From an uncultured Anaerolineales bacterium (GTDB lineage: Bacteria > Planctomycetota > Phycisphaerae > FEN-1346), in contig CAZGKW010000007.1 of the NCBI GenBank assembly GCA_964526295.1, forward strand, positions 5,136 through 69,135: DNA of 64,000 nucleotides, in the 5' to 3' direction. Numbering within the stretch: position 1 is the stretch's first letter; each line of letters opens with the position of its first letter. The position numbers and the translations under genes are program-made. A model generated the notes under the pieces. That model did no database searches, was not told the origin of the DNA, and saw only the letters and a program-made list of their open reading frames with translations. Shown one piece after another: positions 7,900 to 61,744 of the stretch.

Positions 7900-8900
7900 C
7901 GCGGTCGGTCTCCGTGCCGACCGCGCTCGGCGGGCGAGGCAGGTCGTGCCGCCCGGCGCGCTTTCTTTCACGTTTTGCCGCGCGGCGGCCAGGACTTTCC
8001 ATCATTTTGGGGCGCGGCGGCCAGTCTTGGCCGCCGCGTGATTCGCGTTTGGAAGTCCCCTCGCGGCGGGCAGGACTGCGCGGCGCGCTTTCTTTCACAT
8101 TTTGTCGCGCGGCGGGCAGGACTTTCCATCATTTTGCCGCGCGGCGGCCAGTCTTGGCCGCCGCGTGATTCGCGTTTGGAAGCCCCCTCGCGGCGGGCAG
8201 GACTGCCCGCCGCGCCTTCGGTTGGGCTGCCCGCCGCGCTTTCGCTTGGACTGCGCGGCGCGCTTTCTTTCACATTTTGCTGCGCGGCGGCCAGTCTTGG
8301 CCGCCGCGTGATTCGCGTTTGGAAGCCCCCTCGCGGCGGGCAGGACAGCCCGCCGCGCCTTCGGTTGGGCTGCCCGCCGCGCTTTCGGTTGGACTGCCCG
8401 CCGCGCTTTCTTTCACATTTTGCTGCGCGGCGGCCAGTCTTGGCCGCCGCGTGACCCGCGTTTCGAAGTCCCTTCGCGGCGGGCAGGACTGCCCGCCGCG
8501 CTTTCGGTTGGACTGCGCGGCGCGCTTTCGGTTGGACTGCCCGCCGCGTGATTCGCGTTTCGAAGCCCCCTCGCGGCGGGCAGGACTGCCCGCCGCGCCT
8601 TCGGTTGGGCTGCCCGCCGCGCTTTCTTTCACGTTTTGCTGCGCGGCGGCCAGTCTTGGCCGCCGCGTGACCCGCGTTTCGAAGTCCCTTCGCGGCGGGC
8701 AGGACAGCCCGCCGCGCCTTCGGTTGGACTGCCCGCCGCGCTTTCTTTCACGTTTTGCCGCCCGGCGGGCTTTCCTTCACATTTTGCCTCGCGGCGGGCA
8801 GGACAGCCCGCCGCGCTTTCGGTTGGGCTGCCCGCCGCGTGATTCGCGTTTCGAAGTCCCTTCGCGGCGGGCAGGACTGCCCGCCGCGCCGACTCTTGAC
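7900..8900. repeat. complex tandem array of palindrome-containing repeat modules (~1 kb)
   Basis: At least six copies of a ~118-nt module GCGCTTTCTTTCACRTTTTGCYGCGCGGCGGCCAGTCTTGGCCGCCGCGTGAYYCGCGTTTSGAAGYCCCYTCGCGGCGGGCAGGACWGCCCGCCGCG, interleaved with ~26-nt submodules CYTTCGGTTGGRCTGCCCGCCGCG. Two internal hairpins recur: GCGGCGGCCAG/TTGGCCGCCGC and CGCGGCGGGCAG-GA-CTGCCCGCCGCG. Overlapping multi-frame ORFs encode the same MKESAPRSP... peptides, which is an artefact of the repetition. Confidence 0.85.
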
Positions 8901-14314: not shown

Positions 14315-15259
14315 GTGACGAACTTTCTGGGCCTCGAACCCCCAGATGAGGGCGGCCCGGCGGCGGCGCGGTTCGCCGTCCTGCCCGTCCCATACGAGGC
14401 GACGGTCACGTACGAGCGCGGCACGGCCGACGGGCCCGCCGCCATCCTGCGGGCGTCCGAGCAGGTCGAGTTGTACGACGAAGAGCTGGGCGTCGAGTTT
14501 CCCCGGGGGGGCGTCGCCACGCTGCCGCCGGTGAGCTTCGCCGAGCCCGGCCCCGCCCCCGAAAAAGACACTAAGTGTCTTTTCCTCCGAAGGAGCCCGG
14601 CGGGTGCTCCGCAGAAAAGACACTTAGTGTCTTTTTCGGGGGGTTTGCGGCGGGTCCGGGAGGCGGCGCTGCCCCTGATGGAGGCGGGGCAATTCGTCCT
14701 GGCCCTCGGCGGCGAGCACAGCATCACCGTCCCGCTCGTCGAGGCGGCTGCCGAGGCCTTCGGCCCCTTGAGCGTCCTCCAGATCGACGCCCACGCCGAC
14801 CTCCGCGACACGTACGACGACACGCCGCACTCGCACGCCTGCGTTATGCGGCGGGTCCTGGAGGTGACGGACCGCATGTGCCAGGTGGGCGTCCGGAGCT
14901 ACTCGAAGGAGGAGGCGGACGCGTGCCCCGAGGCGATCGGGCGGCTCATCACGCCGGCCATGATTCGCCGGGACCCGGACTGGATCGACCGGGCCCTCGA
15001 CCTGCTCACCGGGCGGGTCTACGTGACGGTGGACATGGACGGGCTGGACCCGTCTCTCGCCCCGGGCGTCGGGACGCCCGAGCCGGGGGGCCTTTCGTGG
15101 GAGGAGGTGACGGGGCTGCTCAGGCGCGTCGCGAGCGACCGGGAGGTCGTGGCGGCCGACGTGGTGGAGGTCCGGCCCATCCCGCCGCACCACGTGACGG
15201 AGTTCGTCGCGGCTCGCCTGGCGGCGAAGCTGATCGCCTACACCGAAGCGAGGCGGTAA
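14315..15259 (+). CDS. speB: agmatinase/arginase-family ureohydrolase carrying an in-frame 73-nt palindromic insertion
   Basis: GGEHSIT, IDAHADLRDTY, SHA and VDMDGLDPS metal-binding motifs identify the ureohydrolase family. The frame stays open across the inserted element at 14563-14635, which adds ...EKDTKCLFLRRSPAGAPQKRHLVSFSG... Confidence 0.8.
   Translation: MTNFLGLEPPDEGGPAAARFAVLPVPYEATVTYERGTADGPAAILRASEQVELYDEELGVEFPRGGVATLPPVSFAEPGPAPEKDTKCLFLRRSPAGAPQKRHLVSFSGGLRRVREAALPLMEAGQFVLALGGEHSITVPLVEAAAEAFGPLSVLQIDAHADLRDTYDDTPHSHACVMRRVLEVTDRMCQVGVRSYSKEEADACPEAIGRLITPAMIRRDPDWIDRALDLLTGRVYVTVDMDGLDPSLAPGVGTPEPGGLSWEEVTGLLRRVASDREVVAADVVEVRPIPPHHVTEFVAARLAAKLIAYTEARR
14563..14635. repeat. 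MITE-like element: two inverted copies of a 21-bp perfect palindrome flanking a 31-nt structured core
   Basis: AAAAGACACTaAGTGTCTTTT (14563-14583) and AAAAGACACTtAGTGTCTTTT (14615-14635). The spacer CCTCCGAAGGAGCCCGGCGGGTGCTCCGCAG has its own inverted repeats. The element is AT-rich in a GC-rich CDS. A third copy lies at 61335-61362. Confidence 0.7.
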
Positions 15260-15424: not shown

Positions 15425-16563
15425 TCAGCGGCTTCTCTTCGGCCCCTCCTTCGCCGCCTTCATGCTCACCAGCATGTCCCCGTCCCACTCGAACCGGAGC
15501 CGCGGCCGGGCCGGGGCCGGGTACCGGTCGAAGGCGTAGCCGGCCAGCAGCGGCAGCGAGACGCTGGGCTCGACCCAGGCCATGGCGAAACGGGCCTGGC
15601 GGTCGATCTTGCCCCACGACTGGGCCTCCCCCAGCGTCGAGCTCGACAGCCCCCCGTCCTGCGTCACCGCCGTCGTCACCTGGATGGCGTAGTCGTGGCC
15701 CCGCTCCTGGTTGAAGATGTAGGCCATGACGATCGAATCGTTGATGTAGTTCTTCGGGACGCCCCCGGCGACGTAGATGGCGGCGGTCTTCCTGCTCGCC
15801 AGGACGATCTGGACCAGCTCGTAGTTGTCGCGGATGGCGTCGATGGCGATCCCTGGGCGGCCCTCCTCCCGGCAGCGGTGGTAGTGGTGCGTCAGGCCGA
15901 TGCCGATCGACGAATCGTTCAGGGCCGGCGAGAACATCGGCACGCCGAGCCGGTGGCACTGGCCGACGATCGAGTCCGGGTCGTCCAGGTGCGAGCCGAG
16001 GAAGTCGAGGTAGGCCCGGCTGGAGGTGTTGCCCGGCTCCAGCTCGTCGGCCACCCGGCCGCACCACGTGTCGGTCTCCCAGAACTTCTCCTCGTCGACA
16101 TAGGTGTCGTAGATGCGGTCGATCCGAAGGTCGCGCAGCTCGACGTCGTCGGCCTCGGGCGTCCCGCGCCAGTGGCGGAAGCCCCGGGCCTGGTAGACGT
16201 CCTGGTAGAAGATGGCGCCGGTCGAGACGACGACGTCGACGTAGCCGCCGACCACGAGGTCTCGGATGACGCGCCTCAGGCCCGCAGCGATCAGCGGCCC
16301 GGCGAGGCCCAGGAAGACCGTCGGGCGGTCGGCGTCCTCGTACATCGCCGAGAGGACCCGGGCGCACGTCCCGACGTTGCGGGCCTGGATCGACATGCCG
16401 GCCATCCCGTCGACGAGGTCGGCGACCGTCATGCCGGGCCGGACGTGGGCGGCCTCGACGGGCCGGGACAGGATGCGGCGCTTCCGCCGCCGCTGGGCCG
16501 GGGGAAGGGGGCCGTAGGGGCCGGCCTCGGCGCCGGATTTCTTGCCGCTGCGCTTGCGTGCCA
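15425..16563 (-). CDS. deoxyhypusine synthase-family protein (homospermidine/deoxyhypusine synthase-like)
   Basis: ATG at 16563-16561 gives MARKRSGKKSG.... The body reads ...AGLRRVIRDLVVGGYVDVVVSTGAIFYQDV... and ...IYVAGGVPKNYINDS..., which is a DHS-like NAD-binding fold. The track ORF 15425..17026 runs on into the next gene's frame. Confidence 0.8.
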
Positions 16564-26988: not shown

Positions 26989-27903
26989 TTACTCGCTCAG
27001 GCAGCGGACGCCTTCGGCCGCGGCGGCCGCCGCGAGCCGCTCGACCTCCTCGTCCGGCAGCGGCGCCTCGTATGCTCCGTACGCATACGCTCGTCCGAGG
27101 CGCCGATATTTCGACCGGGCGAGCGGATTGAAGTTGATCAGCTCGACCGGCACCCGCTCGTCGACTTCGCGGACGTACCGGGCGACGGCCCGGACGTTCT
27201 CCTCGGTGGCCGTCACGGCGGGGATGAGCGGCACGCGGACGCGGACGTTCGTCCCGCGCCGGCAAAGCGCCTCGAAGTTCGCCCGGATCGGGTCGCTTGG
27301 GCGGCCGGTCAGCTCCTCGTGCCGCGCCGAGTCGGTCAGCTTCAGGTCGACCAGGAACAGGTCCACCAGGTCGACCAGTGGCTCGACCGTCTCGGGCGCG
27401 GCGAAGAGGCACGTCTCGATGGCCGTGTGCAACCCCTCCTCGCGGCAGAGGCCCAGCACCTCGCGGCTGAAGGCCGCCTGAAACAGCGGGTCGCCGCCCG
27501 AGAGCGTCACGCCCCCGCCGGAGGTCTCGTAGAACACGCGGTCCTTGAGGACCTCCTCGACGACCTCGGCGGCGCCCATCTCGCGGGCGTCGAACTCGAG
27601 CGCCGCCGAGGGGCATTCCCGGACGCACGCGCCGCAGACGGTGCACCGCTCGCGGTGGATGCGGACGGCCGGCTCCCCCTCGGCCTCGCCCGCCGAGAGG
27701 GCGTCCTCGGGGCAGACCTCGATACATCGATGGCACCGGATGCATCGGCCCTCGGTGTACCAGATGCCGATCTCCGGCGCGATGCCCTCCGGGTTCTGGC
27801 ACCACGGGCACGCCAGGGGGCACCCCTTGAGGAACACCGTCGTCCGGATGCCCGGCCCGTCGTGGACCGCGAATCGCTTGATGTCGAACACCGTGCCGCG
27901 CAA
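26989..27903 (-). CDS. glycyl-radical enzyme activating protein (radical SAM, PFL-AE family)
   Basis: CPLACPWC is a CX3CX2C radical SAM motif. An internal ferredoxin-like C-rich insert (CIRCHRCIEVCP...CTVCGACVRECP) is present. It sits immediately downstream of GRE-1. Confidence 0.9.
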   Translation of the reverse strand: MRGTVFDIKRFAVHDGPGIRTTVFLKGCPLACPWCQNPEGIAPEIGIWYTEGRCIRCHRCIEVCPEDALSAGEAEGEPAVRIHRERCTVCGACVRECPSAALEFDAREMGAAEVVEEVLKDRVFYETSGGGVTLSGGDPLFQAAFSREVLGLCREEGLHTAIETCLFAAPETVEPLVDLVDLFLVDLKLTDSARHEELTGRPSDPIRANFEALCRRGTNVRVRVPLIPAVTATEENVRAVARYVREVDERVPVELINFNPLARSKYRRLGRAYAYGAYEAPLPDEEVERLAAAAAAEGVRCLSE

Positions 27904-27906
27904 CGC

Positions 27907-30303
27907 CTACCTCCCGAACGTCGTCCGCGCGATGATCTCGTCCTGGAGCTCCTCGGCCAGCTCCGTGAAGTAGGCCGTGTAGCCCGCGACGCGGACCGTC
28001 AGGTGGCGGTACGCCTCGGGGTCGGCCTTGGCCCGGAGGAGGTCCTCGCGTCGGACGACGTTGAACTGGGCGTGATGGATGCCGAGCCGGACCAGCCCTT
28101 CCAGCAGGGCCGCGAACTTCTCCCGGTCGGCCTCCCGCCGGAAGAACGCCGGCAGGAACTTCATGTTCAGAAGCGTCCCGTTGCTGCCCCAGATCGAGCC
28201 GACCCGGGCGACGCTCTTCAGGACCGCCGTCGGTCCCCGGACGTCCCGCCCGGACATCGGCGAGAGACCTCCGTCCGCCAGGGGCGCCCCGGCCCGGCGG
28301 CCGTCGGGTGTCGCGCCGACGTTGCGGCCCATCGGCACGTGGGCCGAGACCGTGTAGAAGCCGGCGTGGTACGGCCCGCCGCGGGCGTTCTCGTGCGTGG
28401 CGAGCTTCCGGGCGAACGCCTCCGCCCACTTCGCCGCGAGACGGTCGACCCACTCGACGTCGTTGCCGTACTTCGGCACGTGCGCGAGGAGATGCTGCCT
28501 GAGCGGCTCGTCGCCCTCGAAGTCGCGCCGCAGGGCGTCCAGCAAGCGGCCGGGCTCCACGGATCGCTCCTCGAAGACGCACTGCCGGATGGCCGCCAGG
28601 CTGTCGGCCAGGTTCGCCGGCTGGATGCCCTGGACGCCGGAGAGGTTGTACCGGGCGCCGCCGGCGGTCACGTCGACGCCGCGCGCCAGACAATCGTCGA
28701 CCACGCTCGAGAGGAGCGGCGACGGGACGACCTCGGCGTGGGTCCGGTCCACGGCGTCGCAGGCCCGGACCATGATGGGCAGGAAGTAATCGAGCTGGGC
28801 TTCGAGGGCCCGCTCGACGTCCTCGAACGAGCGGTGGTCGGCCAGCGTGCCCGTCCGCGGCCCCAGAGGCTCGCCCGTCAGCAGACATCGACCGTCGTTG
28901 ATGGCCAGCTCCAGGGCCTTGACGAGGTTGAGCATGGCGGCGTCGCTCCAGCCCAGGAAGTTGCCCTGGGCCGACAGCTCGACGCACCCGACCACGCCGT
29001 AGTCCCGGGCGGCGCGCTCCTCGACGCCGCGGGCCATGAGGGCGGGAACCACGCTCTCGTCGTTGAAGACCTGGGGCATGCCGCTCCCGAGGCCGATCAC
29101 GCGGACGACCTCCAGGAGGAACCGCCGCGGCGAGCCCCGATGGAGACGGGCCGAGAGGTTCGGCTGCGGCAGGCCGAGGTGCTCCTGGGCCTTGAGGCAG
29201 AGGTACGAGAGGGCGTTCGTCGCGTCGGTGCCGTCCGGCGTCCGGCCGCCGATCGCGCCGTTGAAACCGATCGGGAAGCCGGCGAAGTAGCGGGCCCCCT
29301 CGGTGCTTCGCATGTAGACGATCGAATTGAACTTCAGGAAGAGGGCTTCGAGGACCTCCAGGGCGCCGGGCAGGTCGAGCCGGCCGCTCGCCAGGTCGGC
29401 CGACAGGCAGGGCTCGAGTGTCTGGTCGATGCGGCCCGGCGAGAAGCTCGACGCGTTCGATTCCATCTGGAGCAGGACGAACAGGAACCAGAGCGACTGG
29501 ACCGCCTCGCGGAAGGTTGCCGGCGGATGGTCGGCCAGCCGGTCGGCGATGCGACCGATCGCCCCGAGGTCCGACCGCTCGGCCTCCGGCCGGTCGGCGC
29601 GGGCCATTTCGTCGGCGAGGCGGGCGTAGCGCCGCATGAAGTCCCGCGACGCCGACAGGGCCGTCACCACCGCGCGGTAGAAGTCGGCCCGCTCGCCGTC
29701 GGCCCCGGCCAGGCGCTGCTCGGCCTCGGCTTGGAGGCCCGCCGGGCCGAGCCGCAGCCACGTCCGGACGTTCGGGATGATGTGTCCCTGGGCGTGGTCC
29801 TTCTGGTTGATCTTGACGACGCGGTCGGCCCGCCGCACGTCCGCATCCAGCCGCTCGGCGACGCGGTCCTCCAGCGTCCGGCCCCGCCAGTAGGGCAGGA
29901 CCTCGGCGCGGAAGCGGCGGACGTCCTCGGCGGAGACGTCGAAGGTGTCCTGGGGCCGGGTCGGGAGCGACTCGATCTCGCGGTCGATCCACTCGACGGC
30001 CGCCTCGGGAAAGACGACGCCCGCCCGGCTCGTCGGCGTCCGGTTGCCGACGATCAGCTCGTCCGGGTCGATGCGGATGGTGATGTGGCGGAGCGTGTGG
30101 GCGAGGGCCTCGGCCCGCTGGACGATCCGCGGGGCCGACTCGTGGCGGCGATAGCTTTCCGTCACGAGCAGGGCCTGCTCGAGGCTGACGACCCGCCGCT
30201 CGGCCAGGAGCTTCTCCCTCAGGCGGCGGATGCGCGGCGTCGGCTCCAGGCCCGCCAGGGCCGCCGGGTCGGCCGCATCCAGTTGGCTCGGTGCGTCGGG
30301 CAT
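27907..30303 (-). CDS. glycyl radical enzyme (PFL-like fold), GRE-1
   Basis: 798 aa. The Cys loop is ...YGVVGCVELSAQG..., and the C-terminal glycyl radical motif is TVRVAGYTAYFTEL. Confidence 0.9.
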   Translation of the reverse strand: MPDAPSQLDAADPAALAGLEPTPRIRRLREKLLAERRVVSLEQALLVTESYRRHESAPRIVQRAEALAHTLRHITIRIDPDELIVGNRTPTSRAGVVFPEAAVEWIDREIESLPTRPQDTFDVSAEDVRRFRAEVLPYWRGRTLEDRVAERLDADVRRADRVVKINQKDHAQGHIIPNVRTWLRLGPAGLQAEAEQRLAGADGERADFYRAVVTALSASRDFMRRYARLADEMARADRPEAERSDLGAIGRIADRLADHPPATFREAVQSLWFLFVLLQMESNASSFSPGRIDQTLEPCLSADLASGRLDLPGALEVLEALFLKFNSIVYMRSTEGARYFAGFPIGFNGAIGGRTPDGTDATNALSYLCLKAQEHLGLPQPNLSARLHRGSPRRFLLEVVRVIGLGSGMPQVFNDESVVPALMARGVEERAARDYGVVGCVELSAQGNFLGWSDAAMLNLVKALELAINDGRCLLTGEPLGPRTGTLADHRSFEDVERALEAQLDYFLPIMVRACDAVDRTHAEVVPSPLLSSVVDDCLARGVDVTAGGARYNLSGVQGIQPANLADSLAAIRQCVFEERSVEPGRLLDALRRDFEGDEPLRQHLLAHVPKYGNDVEWVDRLAAKWAEAFARKLATHENARGGPYHAGFYTVSAHVPMGRNVGATPDGRRAGAPLADGGLSPMSGRDVRGPTAVLKSVARVGSIWGSNGTLLNMKFLPAFFRREADREKFAALLEGLVRLGIHHAQFNVVRREDLLRAKADPEAYRHLTVRVAGYTAYFTELAEELQDEIIARTTFGR

Positions 30304-30368
30304 CGCTCTATCTTACACGGGCGTCGGCCGGGGGAAAGGCCGCCGGGTCGTCGCGAAGCGTCCGCGCG

Positions 30369-31562
30369 TCAGCGGTAACGGTCGACGAAGCCGATCGTCC
30401 GGCCCCGGTCGAAGAACGGGTCCGGGTGCCGCGGGGCCCCGAGGTAGGACGGCTCCTTCTGGCTGACGTTGTTGGCGCAGGTCGTCCCCTCGCCCTCGGC
30501 CAGGACGTCGCCCTCGGTGAAGAAGTTGACGTTGTTTCCGAGGATGACGTTGTTGCGGCACGAGGCGTGCTCGCGGATGCCGTATTCCATCCAGAGCTGG
30601 CCGCCCCAGTTGAAGACGGAGTTGCCGACGACCTGGACGCCCGCGGTCTCGCCCTCCAGGAGGATCCCGATGAGGCGGGCGTCGCGGCGCCCCGAGCCCG
30701 AGTCGATGACGTTGTTGGCGTTGATCGAGCCCCACTTGACGTCCCGCACGACGATGCCGTGCCCCAGGTGCCAGCAAAATATATTACTTGAGATATTGAT
30801 CTCGTGGGCGGTGTCGACGACGACCGCCGCATCGGAGACCTGGAAGCTCCGGCAGCCCGATACGAGGACGCTGTTGCTCGTCGTGTGGATGTGGTAGGCG
30901 GGCCCGGCGCTCTGGTACACCGCGCAGCCGAGGATGTTCAGGACGATGGCGCGTCGGCACTCGATCCCGGCACCGCCCGCGTAGACGACGCAGCCGGAGA
31001 CCAGGTTCGGCACGTAGTTGCCGATGCGTCCCCCGTCGGCCAGGTGGTCGGCGAAAACGCCCGCCTTGCCGTTCTCGGCCAGGCGGCAGCCCCGGACCTC
31101 GCACAGAAACGAGTTATTGCGCATCCACACGCCGTACCCCGCGAAGCCGACGCAGAAGAGGTCCCGCACCTGGCAGTCGCCGCAGTCGTCGAGGACGACG
31201 CCGGCCTCGGCGTCGGCGTTCTCGCCCGCCTTGAGGGCGAGGTCCGAGACGAGCGCCCCCCCGAGCCCCCGGCACAGGATTCCGACGCCGGTGTCGTGCT
31301 CCCGCGCGAGGACCAGCTCGGTGGCCCGTCCGCTGCCGCGGAGCCACACGTTGTCCGCCAGGTGCAGCTCCTTCCGAAGGACGTACCGCCCCTCGTGGAG
31401 GAGGACGGAGCCGCCGGTCTCGGGCAGGCGGTCGACGGCCGCCTGGATGGCCTCCGAGGCGTCCGCCGTCGCGAGGACCTCCCGGCCGCTCGCCCGGTGA
31501 CGGGCCCGGACGGTCCCGTCGTCGAGGTAGACTTCGCAGCCCTGCGAGCTTCCTCCGGTCAT
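30369..31562 (-). CDS. right-handed parallel beta-helix repeat protein
   Basis: Repetitive ...G..I.....N.V..N.. turns with many Gly/Asn/Cys, which is a pectin-lyase-fold signature. The start is taken as the MTGGSSQGCEVYLDDG ATG at 31562; the track ORF extends to 31790. Confidence 0.6.
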   Translation of the reverse strand: MTGGSSQGCEVYLDDGTVRARHRASGREVLATADASEAIQAAVDRLPETGGSVLLHEGRYVLRKELHLADNVWLRGSGRATELVLAREHDTGVGILCRGLGGALVSDLALKAGENADAEAGVVLDDCGDCQVRDLFCVGFAGYGVWMRNNSFLCEVRGCRLAENGKAGVFADHLADGGRIGNYVPNLVSGCVVYAGGAGIECRRAIVLNILGCAVYQSAGPAYHIHTTSNSVLVSGCRSFQVSDAAVVVDTAHEINISSNIFCWHLGHGIVVRDVKWGSINANNVIDSGSGRRDARLIGILLEGETAGVQVVGNSVFNWGGQLWMEYGIREHASCRNNVILGNNVNFFTEGDVLAEGEGTTCANNVSQKEPSYLGAPRHPDPFFDRGRTIGFVDRYR

Positions 31563-31779
31563 GGTCGGTCTCCGGTCTTGCGTCGCGTCGTCTTGCGCCT
31601 CTTGTACTGAGACAGCGCCGGCGTGCAAGCCGAAACCGTCGCGCCGCACGCCCCGTTCCGGGAAAGCACTACCCATGCGGCCGCGGGTCGTATAGTCTGG
31701 GACAGCGTTGCCAGCCCGGCGCGTGTGTACAGGCACCGGCTCATGGCCACGAAGCGCACCAAGCGAAGGAGGTCCCGGC

Positions 31780-32760
31780 ATGGCCGACAAGGTCCGTTAC
31801 GGCGTCATCAGCACGGCCCGCATCGCCCGGAAGTCGCACATCCCCGCCGCCGCCAAGACGACGAACTGCGAGATCGTCGCCATCGCCAGCCGCGACCAGA
31901 GTCGGGCGGAGCACTGGGCGGGCGAGCTGGACATCCCCCGGGCCTATGGTTCCTACGCCGAGCTGCTCGACGATCCGGACGTCGACGCCGTCATCAACGC
32001 CACGCCGAACAGCCTCCATGCCGAGTGGACCGTCCGGGCGGCCGAGGCCGGCAAGCACATCCTGTGCGAGAAGCCGTTCGCGATGACCGTGGAGGAGGCC
32101 GACGGGATGATCGCCGCCGCCCGCGACGGGGGCGTGCTGCTGATGGAGGCGTTCCGCTACCGGTTCCACCCGCAGGTGCCGTTCGTCCGCGAGACGATCG
32201 ATTCGGGCGAGGTCGGCGAGCTGCGCCTGACGCGCGTCGAGCTTCTCTACACGATCCAGGACTGGGCGGGCGACTCGCGCGTCAAGCCGGGGCTCGGCGG
32301 CGGGTGCCTCATGGACGCCGGCTGCTACACCGTCAACCTGACGCGGTTCCTCATGGGGGCCGAGCCGGTCCGCGTGCAGGCGTTCGAGCGGCGCCGGGCC
32401 GAGCCGGCCGTCGACACGACCTTCGCGGGCCTCATGGAGTTCCCCGGCGACCGGCTCGCGTACGTCGCGACGGGCATGGAGGAGCCGTTCCGGTTTACGT
32501 GCGAGGTGATCGGTTCGGAGGGCACGATCCGCGTGGCACACTGTTTCGCGGGCGGGGCGGTGACCGTGGAGTCCGGCGGCCAGGAGAAGGTCCGCGAGTT
32601 CGACGGCATTGACCAGTTCCAGGCCCAACTCGAACACTTCTCCGACTGCATCCTGAGCGGCACGCCGCCGATGTTGCCGGTGGAAGACGCCCGGGGCAAC
32701 ACGGCGGCGCTGGTGGCCCTCCGCCGCGCCGCCGCGGAAGGACGGGCGATTGACGTGTAG
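31780..32760 (+). CDS. Gfo/Idh/MocA-family NAD(P)-dependent oxidoreductase
   Basis: ATG at 31780 after AAGGAGG gives MADKVRYGVISTARIARKSHIPA.... ...EKPFAMTVEEADGM... is the classic EKP motif. Confidence 0.85.
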   Translation: MADKVRYGVISTARIARKSHIPAAAKTTNCEIVAIASRDQSRAEHWAGELDIPRAYGSYAELLDDPDVDAVINATPNSLHAEWTVRAAEAGKHILCEKPFAMTVEEADGMIAAARDGGVLLMEAFRYRFHPQVPFVRETIDSGEVGELRLTRVELLYTIQDWAGDSRVKPGLGGGCLMDAGCYTVNLTRFLMGAEPVRVQAFERRRAEPAVDTTFAGLMEFPGDRLAYVATGMEEPFRFTCEVIGSEGTIRVAHCFAGGAVTVESGGQEKVREFDGIDQFQAQLEHFSDCILSGTPPMLPVEDARGNTAALVALRRAAAEGRAIDV

Positions 32761-32810
32761 CGACGGCGGGGGCGAGCGGCGTTACGTCGAGGCGTGAGGA
32801 AGGGCAGGGG

Positions 32811-35114
32811 ATGGCTAGGACGGTCGAAGTTGCGGAGTTGGTGGGCCGGCCGGACACGCCGCGCGTCGCCGACCTGAGGCTGCGGGTCTGGGAGGCGATG
32901 GAGCGGCCGCCCGTCGCGTGGGATTGCCCCGAGCGGATCGCCGAGGCGCCCATGGCCGAGCCGCTCGCGGTCCGCAAGGCCCGCGCGATCGCCCTGAAGC
33001 TCGCCCACATGCCCACGGACCTGTGGCGGGGGCAGCTCCTGGCCGGGTCGATGACGCTCGAGGAGCCCCGCGTCCACGCCGAGCGGGGCTTCCCGGATTA
33101 CACGACCGAGGCCGAACGGGCCGCGGCGGCCGAGAAGGGCCTCTCGGTCCACTCCGTCTTCGGCCACATCGTGCCGGACTACCCGCGGTTGCTGGCGAAG
33201 GGGCTTCGGGGCATCCTGGCCGACGTCGACGCCCAGCGCCCCTCAGCCGAGTCTCCCGAGGAGACGGCGTTCCTCGATTCGGTCGCCATCGCGCTGAAGG
33301 CGGTGATGGCGTTCGCTTCGCGCCTGGCCGACCGGTGCGATGCCGAGGCCGAGGCGTGCGCCGACGCATCGCGGGCCGCCGAGCTGTCGCAGATGGCCGC
33401 CGACCTGCGGCAGGTGCCCGCCGGGCCCGCCCGGACCTTCGCCCAGGCCCTCCAGTCGGTCTGGCTGCTGCACATGATCTTCCATTCGACGATGAACGGC
33501 AACGCCCTCGGGCGGCTCGACCAGTACGCCTGGCCCTACCTGGAGGCGGACCTGGCGGCGGGCCGCACGTCGTGGACCGAGGCGGCCGAGCGGGTCGACT
33601 GCTTTTGCCTCAAGTTCAACGAGCGGGCCAAGACCACCGAGGAGCAGCGGCCCGATGGCCGCGAGGACGAGCCGATCGACCTCCGGCAGCGGACGCGGCA
33701 CACGACCTCGTCGCAGCTCGGACGCCGCCGCGACCGGCTCGACGCGACGAACCACTGGCTCCAGAACATCGTCGTCGGCGGTCGGACGCCCGGCGGGGGG
33801 GACGGCACGAACTCGCTCTCGCTGCTCCTCCTGGAGAGCTATCGCCGGAACCGGATGACCAACCCGCTGGTGACGGTGCGGCTCCATCGCGGCTCGCCCG
33901 AGGGGCTCGTGCGGCGGGCCGCCGAGGTGCTCAAAGAAGGCGGCGGGATGCCCGCCCTCTTCAACGACGAGGCGCTCGTCCCGGCCCTGGAGCGGATCGG
34001 CATCCCGACGCCCGACGCCCGCGACTATACGAACGACGGCTGCTGGGAGGTGATCGTCCCCGGGCGGACGGACTTCCGGTTCCAGCGCTTAAGCGCGATG
34101 CTGTGCCTGGAGCGGGCCCTCGGCCGCGGGCAGGCCCGGCTGGACGGCTGGCCGATGGGCCCGGACACGGGCGACCCGCGGGCGTTCGAGGCGTTCGAGG
34201 ACATCTGGCGGGCGTTCGAGGCGCAGCTCGATGCGATGATCGCTCGGACCGTCCGGCGGGTCGTCAAGCGGCTGGACGAGCGGTCGACGATCGCCCCGGT
34301 GCCGCTCCTCTCGGCCCTCGTTGATGGGGCGATCGAGTCGCGGCGCGACATGACGGCCGGCGGGGCCCGGTTCCGCATGTTCGGGATGCTCTGCGAAGGG
34401 GCGGCCCACGCCATCGACTCGCTCGTGGCGATCCGGACGGTGGTCTTCGAGGACGAGGCCGCGACGATGGCCGAGCTTTGCGATGCGCTCGAGGCGGACT
34501 TCGAGGGCCGCGAGCCGCTCCGGCGCCGGCTGCGCGCCGCCCCGAAGTACGGCAACGACGACGACCGGGCGGATGCCCTCGGGCGGCGGATGATCGAGGC
34601 GTTCACCGCGTCGGTGGCGCGGCACGCCGAGGCCCACCGCTGGCGGGTGCGGTTCCCGTGCGGCGTGGGGACGTTCTCGTGGTACGTCGGCATCGGCGAG
34701 GGGCTGGGGGCGTCGGCCGACGGTCGCGGCGCGGGCGAGCCGGTCTCGTCGAACTTCTCGCCCGCCCTGGGGCGCGACGTCGAGGGGATCCCCGGGGCGA
34801 TCCTCTCCTACGCGAAGATGCACCAGGCCCATCTGCCGGCCGGCGGACCGCTCGACGTGCGCCTGGCGCGGCGGCTGGTCGAGGGGGAGGCCGGCACGGA
34901 GCGTCTGGCCGCCCTCCTCCGGGGCTTCGTCGACACCGGCGGGGCCATGCTCACCCTCACCGTCGCCGACACCGAGGAGCTTCGGGCCGCCCAGCGGGAA
35001 CCCGAGCGGCACCGGTCGCTCCGCGTCCGGATGGGCGGCTGGAGCGCCTACTTTACGATGCTGAGCCGCGAGCAGCAGGACCATCACATCCGCCGCCAGG
35101 AAGGGCGGGCATGA
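32811..35114 (+). CDS. glycyl radical enzyme (PFL-like fold), GRE-2, with atypical radical-Gly motif
   Basis: 767 aa. The Cys loop is ...YTNDGCWEVIVPG.... The C-terminal RVRMGGWSAYFTML replaces the canonical RVSGYSAxF. It is immediately followed by, and overlaps with, its activase. Confidence 0.85.
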   Translation: MARTVEVAELVGRPDTPRVADLRLRVWEAMERPPVAWDCPERIAEAPMAEPLAVRKARAIALKLAHMPTDLWRGQLLAGSMTLEEPRVHAERGFPDYTTEAERAAAAEKGLSVHSVFGHIVPDYPRLLAKGLRGILADVDAQRPSAESPEETAFLDSVAIALKAVMAFASRLADRCDAEAEACADASRAAELSQMAADLRQVPAGPARTFAQALQSVWLLHMIFHSTMNGNALGRLDQYAWPYLEADLAAGRTSWTEAAERVDCFCLKFNERAKTTEEQRPDGREDEPIDLRQRTRHTTSSQLGRRRDRLDATNHWLQNIVVGGRTPGGGDGTNSLSLLLLESYRRNRMTNPLVTVRLHRGSPEGLVRRAAEVLKEGGGMPALFNDEALVPALERIGIPTPDARDYTNDGCWEVIVPGRTDFRFQRLSAMLCLERALGRGQARLDGWPMGPDTGDPRAFEAFEDIWRAFEAQLDAMIARTVRRVVKRLDERSTIAPVPLLSALVDGAIESRRDMTAGGARFRMFGMLCEGAAHAIDSLVAIRTVVFEDEAATMAELCDALEADFEGREPLRRRLRAAPKYGNDDDRADALGRRMIEAFTASVARHAEAHRWRVRFPCGVGTFSWYVGIGEGLGASADGRGAGEPVSSNFSPALGRDVEGIPGAILSYAKMHQAHLPAGGPLDVRLARRLVEGEAGTERLAALLRGFVDTGGAMLTLTVADTEELRAAQREPERHRSLRVRMGGWSAYFTMLSREQQDHHIRRQEGRA

Positions 35115-36025
35115 CGGCACCGGCGGACCCGCTCGCGCCCCGTGGCCTGGTGTTCGACGTCGACACGTTCGCCGTCCACGACGGGCCGGGCATCCGCCTG
35201 GCGGTCTACCTGAAGGGCTGCCCGCTGGCGTGCCGGTGGTGTCACAGCCCGGAGTCGATCTCGCCACGTCCCGAGGTGCTGTTCCACCGCGACCGGTGCG
35301 TCCTGTGCGGACGGTGCGCCCGTGTCTGTCCGGCGGGCGTCCACACGGTGAGCGAGGCCGGGCACGCGGTGGACCGCGAACAGTGCGAGGTCTGCGGACG
35401 GTGCGTCGAGGCGTGCCCGGCGGGGGCGCTGCGGATCGCGGGACGCGAGGTGACGGCCCGAGAGATCGTCGAGCGGGCCGGGCGGATGCGGCCGTTCTTC
35501 GACCACTCCGGCGGCGGCGTGACGCTGACCGGCGGCGAGGTGACCGCCCAGCCGGAGTTCGCCGAGGCGGTGCTCGACGGGTGCCGCGGGCTCGGCGTGC
35601 ACACGGCGATCGAGACGTGCGGGGCCGCCTCGTGGCCGACGCTGGAGCGGCTGGCCGACCGGGCCGACCTCGTGCTCTATGACCTGAAGCTGATCGACGA
35701 GGCCGACCACCGGGTCTGGACGGGCGGGAGCAACCGGGCCATCCGGGCGAACGCCCGACGGCTGGCCGGTCGCAGCGTCGAGGTCCGCGTGCCGCTCATC
35801 CCCGGCGTCACGGACACCGAGGCGAACCTGCGGGGCCTGTTTGGCTTCTGCCGCGAGGCGGACCTTGAGCGCGTGACGCTGCTGCCGTTCAATCCGTCGG
35901 CGGGGGCGAAGTACGAGTGGCTCGGCCGGCCGTTCGAGGTCGACGCCGAGCCACAGACGGACGAGCAGCTTGGGGGAATCTGCGAGATGGGACGGGCGGC
36001 CGGGCTGGACGTGTCGGTCGGCTGA
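35111..36025 (+). CDS. glycyl-radical enzyme activating protein (radical SAM)
   Basis: ATG at 35111 overlaps the GRE-2 stop as ATGA. It has CPLACRWC (CX3CX2C) and a ferredoxin-like insert CVLCGRCARVCP...CEVCGRCVEACP. The upstream part of track ORF 34478..36025 is spurious. Confidence 0.9.
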   Translation: MTAPADPLAPRGLVFDVDTFAVHDGPGIRLAVYLKGCPLACRWCHSPESISPRPEVLFHRDRCVLCGRCARVCPAGVHTVSEAGHAVDREQCEVCGRCVEACPAGALRIAGREVTAREIVERAGRMRPFFDHSGGGVTLTGGEVTAQPEFAEAVLDGCRGLGVHTAIETCGAASWPTLERLADRADLVLYDLKLIDEADHRVWTGGSNRAIRANARRLAGRSVEVRVPLIPGVTDTEANLRGLFGFCREADLERVTLLPFNPSAGAKYEWLGRPFEVDAEPQTDEQLGGICEMGRAAGLDVSVG

Positions 36026-36095
36026 GAAGTAGCCATGCTGATGGCAGGGGCCCGGACCCGCCCCGCCAATTGCTCAAGACCGGCCCTGGTAGCGG

Positions 36096-38115: not shown

Positions 38116-38251
38116 GCGTCTCCTCCTGTAGGTCGAACGATCACACGCATTGGCGCGTCAGCCCGGCGTGTATTCACACCGGGCGAAACAGGCCGTGCGA
38201 GATGGGCCGGGCGAAATGCGCCCGGCGCCGGCATCCCGCTCCTCTTTTCGC

Positions 38252-39244
38252 TCATAAGGCGCCGAGCGCCTCCTGGTCGGCGGCGATCCGGTCGAGCAGG
38301 GCGTGGCGGGCCTCGTCCGGCTCGTAGGCCCCCGCCCGCCGTTCGTAGAACTCGGCCGTCCGGGCCATGGCCTCGCCCAGGCTGAGTCGGCACTCGAACT
38401 CCCCCGCCACGTCCATCACCTTGGTGTTGTCGAACAGGACCGGCCAGGCCTTGTCCCCGAGGAGCGGCCCCTCCCACTTCGGATCGTACCGGATCAGCGT
38501 GTCGGTCGGGACGTGGACGAGCCGGGCCTCTGCCCCGAGGGCCCGGCCCACCTCCTCGTAGATGCGGTTCCAGGTGTAGCTTTCCATGTGGCGGGTGATG
38601 TGGAACGCCTCGCCGAGGGCCCGGTCGTTGCCCAGGAGGCCGACGAAGGGCCGGGCGAAGTCCTCGCTGGGCGTCAGCGTCCAGAGGGCCGTTCCGTCGC
38701 CGTGGACGATGACGGGGCGGCCGTTTCGGATCCGCCAGGCCCAGTCGTCGCCGCCCGCGATCCCGCCGGGGAACCGACGACGGTGCGTGTGGCTGGGCCG
38801 GACGACCGTGACGGGCATCCGCCCGGCGGCATGGGCCTCCATCAGCAGCCTCTCCATCGCCGCCTTCTCCCGGCTGTAGGCCCAGTAGGGGTTTTCGAGG
38901 GGCACCTCCTCGGTGACGACGAGCCGCTCGGGGGGCTTCCGGTAGGCCGAGGCCGTCGAGATGAAGACGTACTGCTCGACGCGACCGCCGAAGACCTCCA
39001 GGTCGCGCTCGACCGTCGCCCGCTTGTAGGCGAGGAACTGGCAGACGACGTCGAAGCCGCCGTCGCCGAGGCGGGCGCAGGCCGCGTCGTCGGCGAGGTC
39101 GCCGGTGATGCGGCGGGCGGCCGCGGGCAGGGGCTCCTCGGTCCGGCCGCGGTTGAAGACGGTCACGTCGTGGCCGGCCCGGAGGGTCTCGACGACGCAA
39201 GGGTGGCTGATCTCGCCCGTCCCGCCGACGTAAAGGACCTTCAT
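38252..39244 (-). CDS. NAD-dependent epimerase/dehydratase (extended SDR)
   Basis: ATG at 39244-39242 gives MKVLYVGGTGEIS, a GxxGxxG motif. ...YSREK... is a YxxxK catalytic motif. The upstream part of track ORF 38252..39826 is spurious. Confidence 0.8.
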   Translation of the reverse strand: MKVLYVGGTGEISHPCVVETLRAGHDVTVFNRGRTEEPLPAAARRITGDLADDAACARLGDGGFDVVCQFLAYKRATVERDLEVFGGRVEQYVFISTASAYRKPPERLVVTEEVPLENPYWAYSREKAAMERLLMEAHAAGRMPVTVVRPSHTHRRRFPGGIAGGDDWAWRIRNGRPVIVHGDGTALWTLTPSEDFARPFVGLLGNDRALGEAFHITRHMESYTWNRIYEEVGRALGAEARLVHVPTDTLIRYDPKWEGPLLGDKAWPVLFDNTKVMDVAGEFECRLSLGEAMARTAEFYERRAGAYEPDEARHALLDRIAADQEALGAL

Positions 39245-39354
39245 GGGGCCTCCTGGCGTTGGTCGCTTCTTCGCGTCCTTGTGCTCCTCGCGCGTCAGCC
39301 CCCGGTGTGTTCGCCGGGGGCCAAATGGGCCTGCCTGAGTGCTCGGGCGCGGCC

Positions 39355-49887: not shown

Positions 49888-50324
49888 GTCTCGGCCCCCT
49901 CGGCCGCCGGACCGGCCCCGTCGGTCGGCGTGCCGATCATCACGATCAGCCCCCGCCGGGTCAGGTCGCGGAGGAACTGCATGACGCTGATCCGGGCCTC
50001 CTGGAACGTCAGGTGGTGGGCCCGTGAAAAGCGCTCGATGATCTCTTCGGCGGTCCGCCGCCCGTCGCAGGCCTCCCACACCTCCCGGCCCAGCCGGTCG
50101 AGGCCCACGGCCCGCTCGCGGCTGAACGGCATCACCCACGACAGCGGCGGCCGCATGTACCACCGGCGGACGAGCGGCACGCGAAGGACGATCCCGCCTC
50201 CTCCCGGTCCCCGGCCCGACGGTTGCGGCTCGGCGCGGACCGACTCGTTCGGCACGGGGACGGCGTCGAGCAGGTCGGTCGGCCCCAGCGTCGTCTCGGT
50301 CTCCGGTTGCGTCTTCTTCTTCAT
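49884..50324 (-). CDS. PqqD-family / RiPP-recognition-element-like small protein
   Basis: ATG at 50324 overlaps the upstream stop as ATGA. The C-terminal ~85 aa read ...LDRLGREVWEACDGRRTAEEIIERFSRAHHLTFQEARISVMQFLRDLTRRGLI, matching the PqqD fold signature. It is hidden inside track ORF 49884..51245. Confidence 0.65.
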   Translation of the reverse strand: MKKKTQPETETTLGPTDLLDAVPVPNESVRAEPQPSGRGPGGGGIVLRVPLVRRWYMRPPLSWVMPFSRERAVGLDRLGREVWEACDGRRTAEEIIERFSRAHHLTFQEARISVMQFLRDLTRRGLIVMIGTPTDGAGPAAEGAET

Positions 50325-51205
50325 GTCAGCTCGCGCTCCGCCCCGTCCGGCGCCCCGTCGCAGCAGCGGACGGCGAAGGCCTCCGGCCGCACCAGGTCCT
50401 TCCGCGGGCCCCGCGTCGTCACCAGGAACACTGCGTGGGCCGACGGGCACAGCCACGCCCGGTCGAGCCGCTCCGGCGTCCGCCGCACGAACCGGGCGAC
50501 GGCGTTCGGGGCCTCGTTGCTGCGGCCGTCGCGGGCCTCGTGGGTCCCGTACGTCGTCTCGGACACCTGGCACCGGGCGGGGCCCGTCTGGTTCCTCAGG
50601 AACGCCGCCAGGTCCCCGCCGAACCAGGCGTCGACCGCCCCCAGCCGCCGCACGACCGCCTCCCGCCGCCGGTCCTTGCGGAACGTCATCGACGCATCGG
50701 CCGGCCGGGCCGACACCTCGGCCAGCGGCCACTCGGGCGGGACGCGGATGTCGAGGCCGAAGGCCCGCCACCGACGCGGCGGATCGGCCTCGTCGTCCAC
50801 CTCGAACCCCTCCAGGAGCCGCCGCTCCAGGCCCGTATCGACCGCCTCGGGCCACGAGACCACCATCTCGACCCACCGCTTCAAGGCCGCCAGGTACCGC
50901 CCGGCCCGGGTGATGGTGCCGGCCTCGCCCCGGCGGCGGAAGCCCCGCCAGCCGGCCGTCCGCTCCAGGCGAGTCAGCTTGCAGTCGGGGTCCTCGGCCA
51001 GCTCGTCGGCCCGGTAGTCCGAGAGCGTCCGCTTGACGTCCGGCTCGGCCTCGGCCCGGATCCACGAGACCTGGAGCCGTTGCCGACGTCGGTCCGCCAG
51101 GGCCAGGCTGCCCCGCTCGGCGCCCAGGGCGTGGCGGACGATCTCCCACGCCTCCGGCACCGCCAGGTGCATGCCCAGCCACACGATGTCGCGGGTCGTC
51201 TGCAT
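50321..51205 (-). CDS. hypothetical 294-aa protein (no TM, family not recognised)
   Basis: Track ORF 50321..51205(-). G/C-rich third positions. Its stop is coupled to the PqqD-like ATG. Confidence 0.6.
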   Translation of the reverse strand: MQTTRDIVWLGMHLAVPEAWEIVRHALGAERGSLALADRRRQRLQVSWIRAEAEPDVKRTLSDYRADELAEDPDCKLTRLERTAGWRGFRRRGEAGTITRAGRYLAALKRWVEMVVSWPEAVDTGLERRLLEGFEVDDEADPPRRWRAFGLDIRVPPEWPLAEVSARPADASMTFRKDRRREAVVRRLGAVDAWFGGDLAAFLRNQTGPARCQVSETTYGTHEARDGRSNEAPNAVARFVRRTPERLDRAWLCPSAHAVFLVTTRGPRKDLVRPEAFAVRCCDGAPDGAERELT

Positions 51206-51250
51206 CCGCTTGGCTCGCCAAGGCAGGCCCGCCTGCCCCCCTCACCCCAC

Positions 51251-51273
51251 CCCTCTCCCACCAGGGGAGAGGG
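51251..51273. repeat. GC-rich palindromic intergenic element (copy 2 of CCCTCTCC...GGAGAGGG + AGGTSATGG)
   Basis: CCCTCTCCCACCAGGGGAGAGGG followed by AGGTCATGG. It lies in the 87-nt gap between the 946-aa and 294-aa genes. Confidence 0.5.
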
Positions 51274-51291
51274 AGGTCATGGCATGCCGGC

Positions 51292-54132: not shown

Positions 54133-54329
54133 AGGCGGCTTCTCGATCCTCCCCGGCCCGCCCGGTGCGAAGACACGTGCGAGCGGGGCCGGTTCGCCCC
54201 CGTGATGCCGGCGGACCACGGCCGGGCCCGCCGGGGCGTCGGATTCTAATGGCGCGGCGGGGCGTTGCCAAGACCAAAGACGGACAAGACACAAGGGACA
54301 AGGGTGGACGCCCGTCGGCCCGGCTCGAT

Positions 54330-54722
54330 TCACGTGAACCGATCAGGCGAGAGGGGCGCCGGGTCGAGGAGCGGCCGCTCTCCGACCAGGAGCTGCGCGA
54401 CGAGCCGGCCGGTCGCCGGCGCCTGGCAGATGCCCTTCATGGCGTGCCCCGTCGCGACCAGGAGGTCCTCGCACCGGCCGGTCCGGCCGACGGCCGGCAG
54501 GCCGTCCGGCAGGCACGGCCTGAGGCCCCGCCAGATCTCGACCTTCCGCTCGTCCGGACCTTCGACGGGCGGCCTGGCCGGCTCGCCGGCGTCGCACGCG
54601 TGGTAGGTCGACACGGCCCGCCGCACGGCCGCCACGCGGCGGCGGTCGACCGACTCGTCCAGGCCCGCCAGCTCCAGCGTCCCGGCGAACCGCAAGGCCC
54701 CGCCGAGGGGCGTGACGGCCAC
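54330..54722 (-). pseudogene. C-terminal remnant of FAD-dependent (DAO/ThiO/DadA-type) oxidoreductase lacking its N-terminal two thirds
   Basis: ...LLVATGHAMKGICQAPATGRLVAQLLVGERP...APLSPDRF is the conserved C-terminal FAD-closing region of DAO-family enzymes. No GxGxxG-containing N-terminus exists upstream in any frame. Confidence 0.5.
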
Positions 54723-55097: not shown

Positions 55098-55150
55098 CAA
55101 AACCGGAAAGGTTTTGCGCATTCTGAGGCCGGGGGCCGGTTTTTTCTCCG
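55098..55150 (+). terminator. candidate tandem hairpin plus T-run terminator
   Basis: GCAAAACC-GGAAA-GGTTTTGC, then GGCCGGGGGCCGG, then TTTTTTCT. Confidence 0.3.
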
Positions 55151-55468
55151 TTTCGATTTGCCTCCGGGCGTTTTCTATGCTATATAAAGGGCGCTCGGCC
55201 TTACGGGTCCCCGCCCGCGGCGACCTCTGCCGCCGCCGGCCCTCTCCAACCGGACAAGCCAGATTCGCGGGAATTCCATGCTTGGCCGTCGAGAGCGTCC
55301 GCCACCGCCATCGCCTTTGTTTCGTCCACTGTATCACCCTTTCCACTGACGGCAAGACCCCATCCACGGGGCAACTCGATTCTAGGGGACCATGATCTAG
55401 GGGGCCAAGGAAATTCTGGTGAGGCTTGCGGGATGGGTTTGACAGAAGGAATGAAGATCAGGCGGGGC

Positions 55469-55813
55469 CTAGTTACTGCAGATTTCGGCCACGTTCTCGA
55501 TAAACTTCTCGGGGCTTATATCGGTGCTAATGAAGTCTCGGACAAGGGGGCTATATTGCTGATCTAGGTGCCCCTCGCGGGGCCTGCGGTGCATACATTC
55601 ATAGATCCTATTCAATGTCGAATCCCAAACCTCCCCGTAAGCGTCAATCTCTCCTTTAAGCCGTTCCTTTTCTGCTTCTGTTTCGGCATTTGTGTATTGA
55701 TTGACGAGCGCCTTGTATCGTCCCAGCCTATCGGCCAGCTCGCCCAACGTACACCCATCTGCGTTATCGAGATACCACTTTCTGGCGTTGAATTGGCGAT
55801 TGCCCTTGCCCAT
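55469..55813 (-). CDS. hypothetical 114-aa soluble protein (island gene)
   Basis: Track ORF. No TM and no recognised motif. Low-GC codon usage matches the island. Confidence 0.5.
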   Translation of the reverse strand: MGKGNRQFNARKWYLDNADGCTLGELADRLGRYKALVNQYTNAETEAEKERLKGEIDAYGEVWDSTLNRIYECMHRRPREGHLDQQYSPLVRDFISTDISPEKFIENVAEICSN

Positions 55814-55948
55814 TTGCTCCTCCCCTTCCTCTGCGCCTACGGGTGTGATCGGTTCACTTGCTAGCTCATTCTACAGACTCCCTCACTCAGATTAGACGGC
55901 GCGGTCGGCGTTTTTCCTTGGCCCATCCCGATTCGCGCGGTACTGGCG

Positions 55949-56257
55949 TCATCGTTTCCGAAGTGACGCCAGCCCAAAGCCGACGACAGTTGGGATTGAA
56001 CCCACGACAATAATTACGAGTATGCTATCGATGGTATTTGCTAGCGCGAAGAATAGGAGCGCCGAGAGAATCAGCCCCCCTAGGACGGCAATGGCACCCC
56101 ATCCCGTTGTTGCTTCGGTCTTCTCTCCTGAGATCGGATGCCCACAGTGGGGGCATTGGCAAGCAGATGAACTAACTTGACTGGAGCAAACAGGGCATCT
56201 TATCAGTCCCATTGCAGCCACCTCTTCAGGATCCAAAGATTGTGGCCCGCAACTCAA
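55949..56257 (-). CDS. zinc-ribbon membrane protein (island gene)
   Basis: CPVC...CPHC zinc ribbon, then two TM helices (AIAVLGGLILSALLFFALA / ILVIIVVGSIPTVVGFGLA). The start may be the internal MGLIRCPVC. Confidence 0.55.
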   Translation of the reverse strand: MSCGPQSLDPEEVAAMGLIRCPVCSSQVSSSACQCPHCGHPISGEKTEATTGWGAIAVLGGLILSALLFFALANTIDSILVIIVVGSIPTVVGFGLASLRKR

Positions 56258-56286
56258 GCAGACGGTCGAGACTTAGAGTTGCACGC

Positions 56287-57774: not shown

Positions 57775-57888
57775 TCCGCTTCCCCCACTTTTACATTGTC
57801 ATAAACATTCGGCGAACTGGGCAATGTACCTCAAGAACCCGGTTGCGTCAAATAGAAAATGGCGCGCTACTTAGTTCGAGTTGTGCAC

Positions 57889-61319: not shown

Positions 61320-61334
61320 ACCGGGTTAGGCGCA

Positions 61335-61362
61335 GAAAAAAGACACTTAGTGTCTTTTTTTT
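61335..61362. terminator. third copy of the AAAAGACACTTAGTGTCTTTT palindrome flanked by A and T runs (bidirectional terminator-like)
   Basis: GCGCAGAAAAAAGACACTTAGTGTCTTTTTTTTCC, with the same 21-bp core as at 14563 and 14615. Confidence 0.5.
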
Positions 61363-61558: not shown

Positions 61559-61744
61559 CTTTCGTGGGTAGCGTCACTGCGGGGCGTGACGGATCGGGGG
61601 CCGGCCGAGAGGGGTCGGACGGGCCCGACGGGGGGCCAGGGGGGGTATCAAGGGGCCGCCCCCGGCCCTCCGACGCCGACCCTTCCGCGGCGAAGCAAGG
61701 GGCGAGGCGCCGTCGCCGGCGCCACGGGTGAGAGGAGTACTGCG

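Follow-up and report, generated by a model that had tools for sequence, protein, structure and literature searches.

The agmatinase gene in the window, that is, in the whole 64-kb stretch of DNA analysed here, contains an 87-nt inverted repeat that is inserted in frame into its coding sequence. The AT-rich palindrome that forms the core of its arms recurs at a second locus, where an insertion sequence (IS) has cut through one of the two arms. We think it probable that both loci are copies of a small non-autonomous palindromic repeat restricted to this lineage, with one young copy in the agmatinase gene and an older copy that was disrupted by the IS. Three alternative explanations, a one-off copying event, a selected operator or RNA element, and an artefact, each appear less likely than a palindromic repeat element.

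The host gene (14315-15259, + strand) encodes an agmatinase/ureohydrolase of 314 aa from the arginase family (PF00491, E = 1.9e-65). The whole inverted-repeat element spans 14556-14642, has no strand of its own and lies 240 nt inside the coding sequence. It consists of two 29-nt arms that are 100% complementary and 29 nt apart, at 14556-14584 (CCCCCGAAAAAGACACTAAGTGTCTTTTC) and 14614-14642, and of a 29-nt GC-rich loop between them. Within the arms lie two exact matches to the 21-nt palindrome, AAAAGACACTAAGTGTCTTTT at 14563-14583 and AAAAGACACTTAGTGTCTTTT at 14615-14635, neither with a strand, and the complementarity of the arms runs 6 nt past the palindrome itself. The first-pass annotation had delimited a 73-nt element; since the perfect 29-nt arms extend past the palindromes, we revise this size to 87 nt. 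It had also described nested inverted repeats in the spacer, and the GC-rich loop indeed holds small hairpins.

The element is predicted to be highly structured. The first palindrome alone forms a hairpin of -8.5 kcal/mol and the second one, together with its flanks, a hairpin of -15.3 kcal/mol, whereas the 87 nt fold as one long hairpin both as RNA (-62.0 kcal/mol, z = -12.3) and as DNA (-39.2 kcal/mol, z = -11.0). The arms are intragenic here, and their U-tracts reach only U4-U5. No direct repeat or target-site duplication is visible in the flanks (...GGCCCCG/CCCCCG... and ...CGGGGG/GTTTGCG, with the slash at the element boundary). As the closest orthologue is ~73% identical in DNA, the junctions are not fixed to the base and the inserted length is either 84 or 87 nt.

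When comparing the agmatinase to its homologues, we find the inserted segment in the window protein only. In alignments of 12 and 75 sequences, the 74 aligned homologues lack ~28 residues: the stretch V73-R112 comprises 38 residues in the window protein and 10 in the others, which amounts to a net gain of 28 residues (P82-G109, PEKDTKCLFLRRSPAGAPQKRHLVSFSG) and places the insert at residues ~82-109. The segment had initially been estimated at about 25 residues immediately before the GGEHSIT motif; it is instead ~28 residues long and ends 23 residues before GGEHS (G132-S136). An identical protein is on record at NCBI. Nearly all of the other 119 of the 120 listed homologues are 282-313 aa long and thus shorter than the 314-aa product, the exceptions being three or four longer proteins with N- or C-terminal extensions (up to 376 aa). 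Where homologues among those listed are named, they are agmatinases from Planctomycetota and Phycisphaerae MAGs.

The closest relative (P0002, in L032) is 80% identical over the aligned residues and syntenic. The order of fasciclin, B12-binding protein, agmatinase, deoxyhypusine-synthase-like protein and pyruvoyl arginine decarboxylase is common to L032 and the region around the window agmatinase, and the orthologous DNA of L032 does not contain the element. Together with the other aligned homologues, this syntenic orthologue bears out that the insertion is lineage-specific. In addition, a pectate-lyase-like gene (PF12708; 12226-14256, + strand) lies between the B12-binding gene and the agmatinase gene in the window. 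These two genes are adjacent in L032, so the agmatinase neighbourhood had another lineage-specific insertion.

The reading frame of the agmatinase continues through the element, as the first-pass annotation had claimed. Two of the three frames are closed, by a TAA (14572) in the first palindrome and a TAG (14625) in the second, each in a frame that the gene does not use, and the sole open frame is that of the gene. The same holds for each strand of the element: two of three frames are closed, with the TAA lying in the arm whose centre is A and the TAG in the one whose centre is T. Because the palindromes of the two arms lie 52 nt apart, start to start, the two stops fall in different frames. 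Furthermore, the residues that are invariant in the family, catalytic ones included, are all retained (G132-G133-E134-H135, D158, H160, D162, D240, D242 and E285).

The insert peptide itself has no homologue among 1.84 billion representative proteins in an exhaustive HMMER search. Two marginal matches, to a WD40 repeat (GRHLVSGS) and to a zinc-finger repeat (KCEFCG...KRHI), were rejected as chance resemblances. A word-indexed search with the element peptides in four frames was likewise empty; it missed even P0001 and is hence a weak negative. As tests for further in-frame copies of the element, both peptide searches are weak.

To locate the insert in the protein structure we used an AlphaFold2 model based on 75 sequences (mean pLDDT 90.2, pTM 0.90). 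Its best Foldseek matches are the agmatinases 3pzl (TM 0.78-0.83), 7lox and 1wog. Residues 81-110, between the strand 67-69 and the helix 107-123, are modelled with a pLDDT of 48-65 and have no secondary structure. In a sequence alignment with PDB 3pzl, the region of the insert comprises 16 residues vs 44 in the query. The low-confidence coil and this alignment gap place the insert in a loop that connects conserved elements of an otherwise normal arginase fold. Since this loop is not packed onto the remainder of the protein in the model, the agmatinase is probably still made, with a disordered appendix of 28 residues.

We then turn to the palindrome. Exact pattern matching of the 21-mer AAAAGACACTWAGTGTCTTTT yields three sites in the window, one with A as its central base (14563-14583) and two with T (14615-14635 and 61338-61358), which agrees with the three copies reported in the first-pass annotation. 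The expected number is 0.00 in 100 dinucleotide-preserving shuffles, even when 3 mismatches are allowed. No other A-run/hairpin/T-run structure occurs in the 64 kb, and no other perfect palindrome with arms of ≥9 nt is AT-rich, the remaining long palindromes of the window being rich in GC. The AT content of the arms is 71-76%, in a window of ~70% GC throughout.

The window contains a second palindromic repeat family that is unrelated to the AT-rich element. It forms a non-coding array of ~940 bp (7951-8890) between the peroxiredoxin-like and the fasciclin genes, made of composite units of ~143 nt. Two perfect palindromes of 26 nt that are rich in GC, CGCGGCGGCCAGTCTTGGCCGCCGCG and CGCGGCGGGCAGGACTGCCCGCCGCG, are present in it in about nine copies, along with 24-nt sub-repeats.

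Amplification and assembly are known to generate perfect long inverted repeats as artefacts, and the insert in the agmatinase gene could in principle stem from a chimeric or foldback read or from an adapter-like sequence. However, the flanks are colinear and in frame on both sides, unlike those of foldback chimeras, and the same 21-mer stands in a different context 47 kb away. Moreover, the sequence of the element matches no adapter known to us. An assembly or sequencing artefact thus appears extremely unlikely.

The recurrence of the palindrome at a second locus, which was reported in the first-pass annotation, is borne out at 61338-61358, and here too it is part of a doublet. Two doublet loci are thus present within 64 kb, 47 kb apart. 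The order at the second locus is IS end, half arm cut at its central CTNAG, 41-nt spacer and intact arm, and the other half of the cut arm is not in the window. None of the three parts of the doublet is assigned a strand. The intact arm (61336-61362, A6-GACACTTAGTGTC-T8) contains the exact 21-mer and resembles a bidirectional terminator, with a U8 tail and a hairpin of -15.6 (+ strand) or -15.4 kcal/mol (- strand). The spacer (61295-61335) ends in GCGCAG, as does the spacer at the agmatinase locus. The half arm CTGAGTGTCCTTTT (61281-61294) is the right half of a variant palindrome, AAAAGGACACTNAGTGTCCTTTT, cut at the centre. It is the only other match without mismatches in the window to CTNAGTGTCYTTT, besides the six half-sites of the three intact palindromes. 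A scan with the 25-nt arm (at least 16 matches, 128 kb of both strands) yielded one further site, at 61270-61294, ~41 nt from the third palindrome. We rejected this site as a degenerate full arm (18/25 matches), as the alignment of the IS copies puts the IS end at 61263-61280 and leaves 61281-61294 as the only arm sequence.

The half arm is abutted by the left end and 5' leader of an IS of the DDE_5 type (PF13546; 61167-61280, - strand). We placed the IS end by a minus-strand alignment with L033, L034 and L036, which carry three independent copies of the adjacent transposase gene together with the DNA upstream and were found via P0124, P0128 and P0127. The homology starts at the junction of TNAG and TTCGNNTTTCGCACTTTT and runs into the gene, which in the window means from 61280 downward. 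This IS end, TTCGNNTTTCGCACTTTT, occurs once in the window, is unlike the arms and interrupts an arm. Searches of plasmids with the IS end (blastn and tblastn) gave no match. The IS in the window is truncated, and its chimeric, truncated transposase frame (60285-61166, - strand) combines a DDE_5 N-terminal part with a Mutator-family (IS256-like) C-terminal part (Pfam: PF13546 at ORF residues 76-160, PF00872 at ORF residues 142-311). The frame starts with a GTG at 61166, at the position equivalent to the P0124 ATG.

Several additional observations concern this IS and its surroundings. The frame at 60285-61319 (- strand) can be read as a single 344-aa DDE_5/Mutator fusion and represents rearranged IS remains, not a functional gene. 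Nearly all 120 listed homologues of the N-terminal part of the transposase are short (74-184 aa), and they are thus fragments or a separate first ORF. The left end TTCGNNTTTCGCACTTTT is shared by four independent DDE_5 IS copies (window 61263-61284; L033 ~185-210; L034 and L036 just upstream of 3001), and in all four it is preceded by TNAG/TAAA after C or G, which suggests a CTNAG-like target or duplication. At a distance of 3 kb from the IS fragments lies a low-GC island (55100-58100, 50-58% vs 70%) that is probably horizontally acquired DNA; its small ORFs have no solid Pfam matches and include zinc-ribbon-like and membrane proteins and a weak PEP-CTERM match.

We also looked for an empty site corresponding to the second locus in L032. 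The porins are orthologous (78% identity), the upstream DNA aligns poorly, and the occurrence of GCGAAAAGGTCTTCCCCGCC in L032 is suggestive only. Upstream of the phosphate-selective porin gene, a motif AAACT(A/C)GC...TAACTTG(C/G)CCTTAA...GCTAAC (window ~61512-61560, L032 ~16510-16560) is kept between the window and L032, and the surrounding intergenic DNA is not conserved. This motif has no Rfam match and could be a regulatory site or a small RNA.

The third palindrome copy had previously been likened to a bidirectional terminator. It does have the shape of an intrinsic (Rho-independent) terminator, yet it is one arm of the second doublet, whose other arm was split by the IS. Because nothing ends at 61336-61362 on either strand, the copy terminates no gene, and a consensus terminator scan did not call it.

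These results bear on a further explanation, namely that the palindromes are functional cis elements under selection. They would be either the site of a dimeric regulator or an RNA element, for instance a site for RNase III or a weak attenuator/terminator, through which the polyamine genes would be tuned and the porin locus insulated. The perfect dyad symmetry, which is typical of operators, the very stable folds, and the U8 tail of the terminator-like third copy would all fit such a function. However, the element is missing from every aligned orthologous agmatinase, including the one of the syntenic relative, and is thus not part of a conserved regulation of the polyamine operon. Furthermore, its position 240 nt inside the coding sequence, the lack of a gene end at the second-locus hairpin, the destruction of one arm by the IS without repair, and the lack of a consensus terminator call or an Rfam family match all argue against a cis element. 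An operator had been named as a possibility in the first-pass annotation, and nothing positive has emerged in its support. Overall, we regard a selected cis element as very unlikely.

When comparing the two loci with each other, we observed that the arm variants differ, as do the spacers. An apparent homology between the spacers failed a shuffle test: the similarity of the 41-nt spacer to the 31-nt one is not above that of shuffles. In addition, the outer CCCCCG/CGGGGG of the agmatinase arms is absent from the second locus. As the spacers are unalike and the outer bases unshared, it is the arm and its layout as a doublet that can be shown to recur, and not an 87-nt consensus.

This difference between the loci would be consistent with a one-off product of DNA repair or replication that involves no transposable element. 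According to this explanation, an ectopic copy of an arm and a spacer would have been made, with a locus like 61281-61362 as one conceivable source, and foldback or template switching would then have produced the perfect palindrome, with 6 nt of host flank copied as well (CGGGGG to CCCCCG). In its favour, the complementarity of the arms is 100% and extends to GC-rich outer bases that are absent from the second locus, the flanks show no target-site duplication, and there are two known loci only, with unrelated spacers. Nevertheless, the doublet architecture is found at two loci independently, with different arm variants and different spacers, and a process that recurs accounts for this more readily than one chance event. 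An ultimate source would also still be needed, since the composition of the arms is foreign to the genome. We thus consider a one-off origin unlikely.

To search for relatives of the repeat, we used the 19-mer core of the palindrome. No high-GC genome contains it in a search of 185,579 species representatives and 241 million metagenome records, collections that do not include the source genome, so no relatives support a family. Exact matches were found in 13 stretches in genome contigs, 18 in metagenome contigs and none in viral contigs. All of them are located in unrelated DNA with a GC content of 24-48% and resemble common terminators, and we thus rejected them as relatives. The element is known from two loci, both within the 64-kb window. 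A full-text literature search for the 13-mer cores gave a single match, a paper on canola CRISPR/Cas9 breeding that appears irrelevant.

Next, we searched the window for an enzyme that could move the repeat. Pfam scans covered 43 of 51 reading frames (GC3-selected frames and frames of the low-GC island), with the frames in 35115-36095, 38158-39354, 50321-54342 and 63184-63999 lying outside the scan. Among the scanned frames there is no transposase besides the chimeric DDE_5/Mutator ORF and no Y1 transposase. None of the scanned transposase frames is flanked by arms on both sides, and this includes the DDE_5/Mutator ORF. Elsewhere in the window, two glycyl-radical enzymes (PFL-like and Gly_radical; 27907-30312, - strand, and 32754-35114, + strand) adjoin a radical-SAM activase (26989-27906) and several aldo/keto reductases in the region 26989-35114. 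Scans of the whole window for Rfam families (at the gathering threshold) and for tRNA/tmRNA genes gave no match.

Four other interpretations of the element were tried and rejected. An attC site is not supported, as chance would account for the one GTTAGGC that the second spacer contains. A CRISPR mini-array would have direct repeats with unique spacers between them, usually close to cas genes, whereas here the complementarity past the palindrome is inverted and the scanned frames of the window contain no cas domains. Translational bypassing would involve an in-frame stop and matched take-off and landing codons, neither of which is present. For an intron or an intein, the element is too small and lacks the motifs.

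The recurrence of the doublet, the insertion relative to the orthologues, the open frame, the retained catalytic residues, the predicted loop and the junction with the IS lead us to infer that the palindromic repeat element has been mobile. Its unit is an AT-rich hairpin composed of an A-run, GACAC, TNA, GTGTC and a T-run, which occurs as doublets 29-41 nt apart; such a doublet can fold in two ways, into a pair of small hairpins or into a single long one. The young copy would have entered the agmatinase at the loop that joins strand 2 to helix 2, and this insertion may have survived because its net length is a multiple of three, it landed in the only frame free of stops and the site is a loop. 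The older copy would have inserted upstream of the porin gene, where one arm was later split at its central CTNAG by the DDE_5 IS. As no target duplication is visible, we suspect by analogy that the moving enzyme is a transposase of the IS200/RAYT type that recognizes single-strand hairpins. In the mRNA of the agmatinase, the 29-bp stem would be an expected substrate of RNase III and may thus lower expression. A much broader proposal is that the element is the first sign of a whole family of palindromic elements that are compatible with coding, in a Planctomycetota-like lineage of high GC content. Like the Rickettsia palindromic elements, they would keep one frame open in either orientation and could thereby colonize loops of housekeeping enzymes, and their 29-bp mRNA stem would allow the cell or the element to control expression of the polyamine pathway through RNase III. 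We regard this proposal as quite doubtful.

If confirmed genome-wide, the element would extend palindromic selfish DNA inside protein-coding genes, which is best known from Rickettsia, to a free-living GC-rich lineage. It would also be a natural test of how well a conserved ureohydrolase tolerates a loop of 28 residues and a perfect 29-bp stem in its mRNA. For annotation, the case calls for caution, as the publicly recorded 314-aa product is an agmatinase plus repeat-derived residues and not a new subfamily.

Lastly, we compared the element to known systems. Bacterial MITEs (such as Correia, ERIC and Nezha) and terminator-like repeats such as SPRITE are small, non-coding elements with terminal inverted repeats. 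They sometimes fuse in frame to ORFs of the host, and their RNA folds into hairpins or structures that resemble terminators (PMC10969869). The element shares with them the terminal inverted repeats, in the form of perfect 29-nt arms, but no target-site duplication is visible and no IS with matching ends occurs in the window. The description of the element as MITE-like in the first-pass annotation thus stands only in part: the perfect inverted repeat supports it, whereas the absence of a target-site duplication, the IS end in the window that is unlike the arms, and the absence, among the scanned frames, of a transposase flanked by arms do not.

REPINs consist of two inverted REP-like hairpins around a spacer and cause no target duplication (PMC3116915, PMC3337134), and REPs carry a GTAG or CGTC tetranucleotide tag at one end (PMC3733652). 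As in REPINs, whose palindromic units are short (20-40 nt), the palindromic unit forms a doublet that is inverted around a spacer and can fold into a long hairpin, and the arms at the second locus are variants of each other. In contrast to REPINs, which are REP doublets moved by RAYT tyrosine transposases, there is no RAYT gene in the scanned reading frames of the window, and the arms and their immediate flanks contain neither GTAG/CTAC nor CGTC/GACG. Furthermore, REPs are extragenic and of high copy number, whereas one of the two loci in the window is inside a coding sequence. The element lacks the tag of REPs and the target duplication of classical MITEs, and the window contains no parent IS with matching ends.

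The Rickettsia palindromic elements (RPEs) are short palindromic repeats found in frame in conserved metabolic genes, where they encode a peptide that is compatible with the structure of the protein (PMC10969869, a review; PMC1779305). The element described here is also inserted in frame in a conserved gene and adds a peptide without destroying the fold. However, RPEs are ~100-150 bp long, comprise ten families, number in the tens of copies and are found in obligate intracellular alpha-proteobacteria that are AT-rich, whereas the window element is 87 nt long, combines AT-rich arms with a Planctomycetota-like genome of 70% GC and is known from two loci; we liken the two by their behaviour and not by their sequence. 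The kind of element is nonetheless already familiar, namely that of palindromic repeats that are able to sit in frame in genes.
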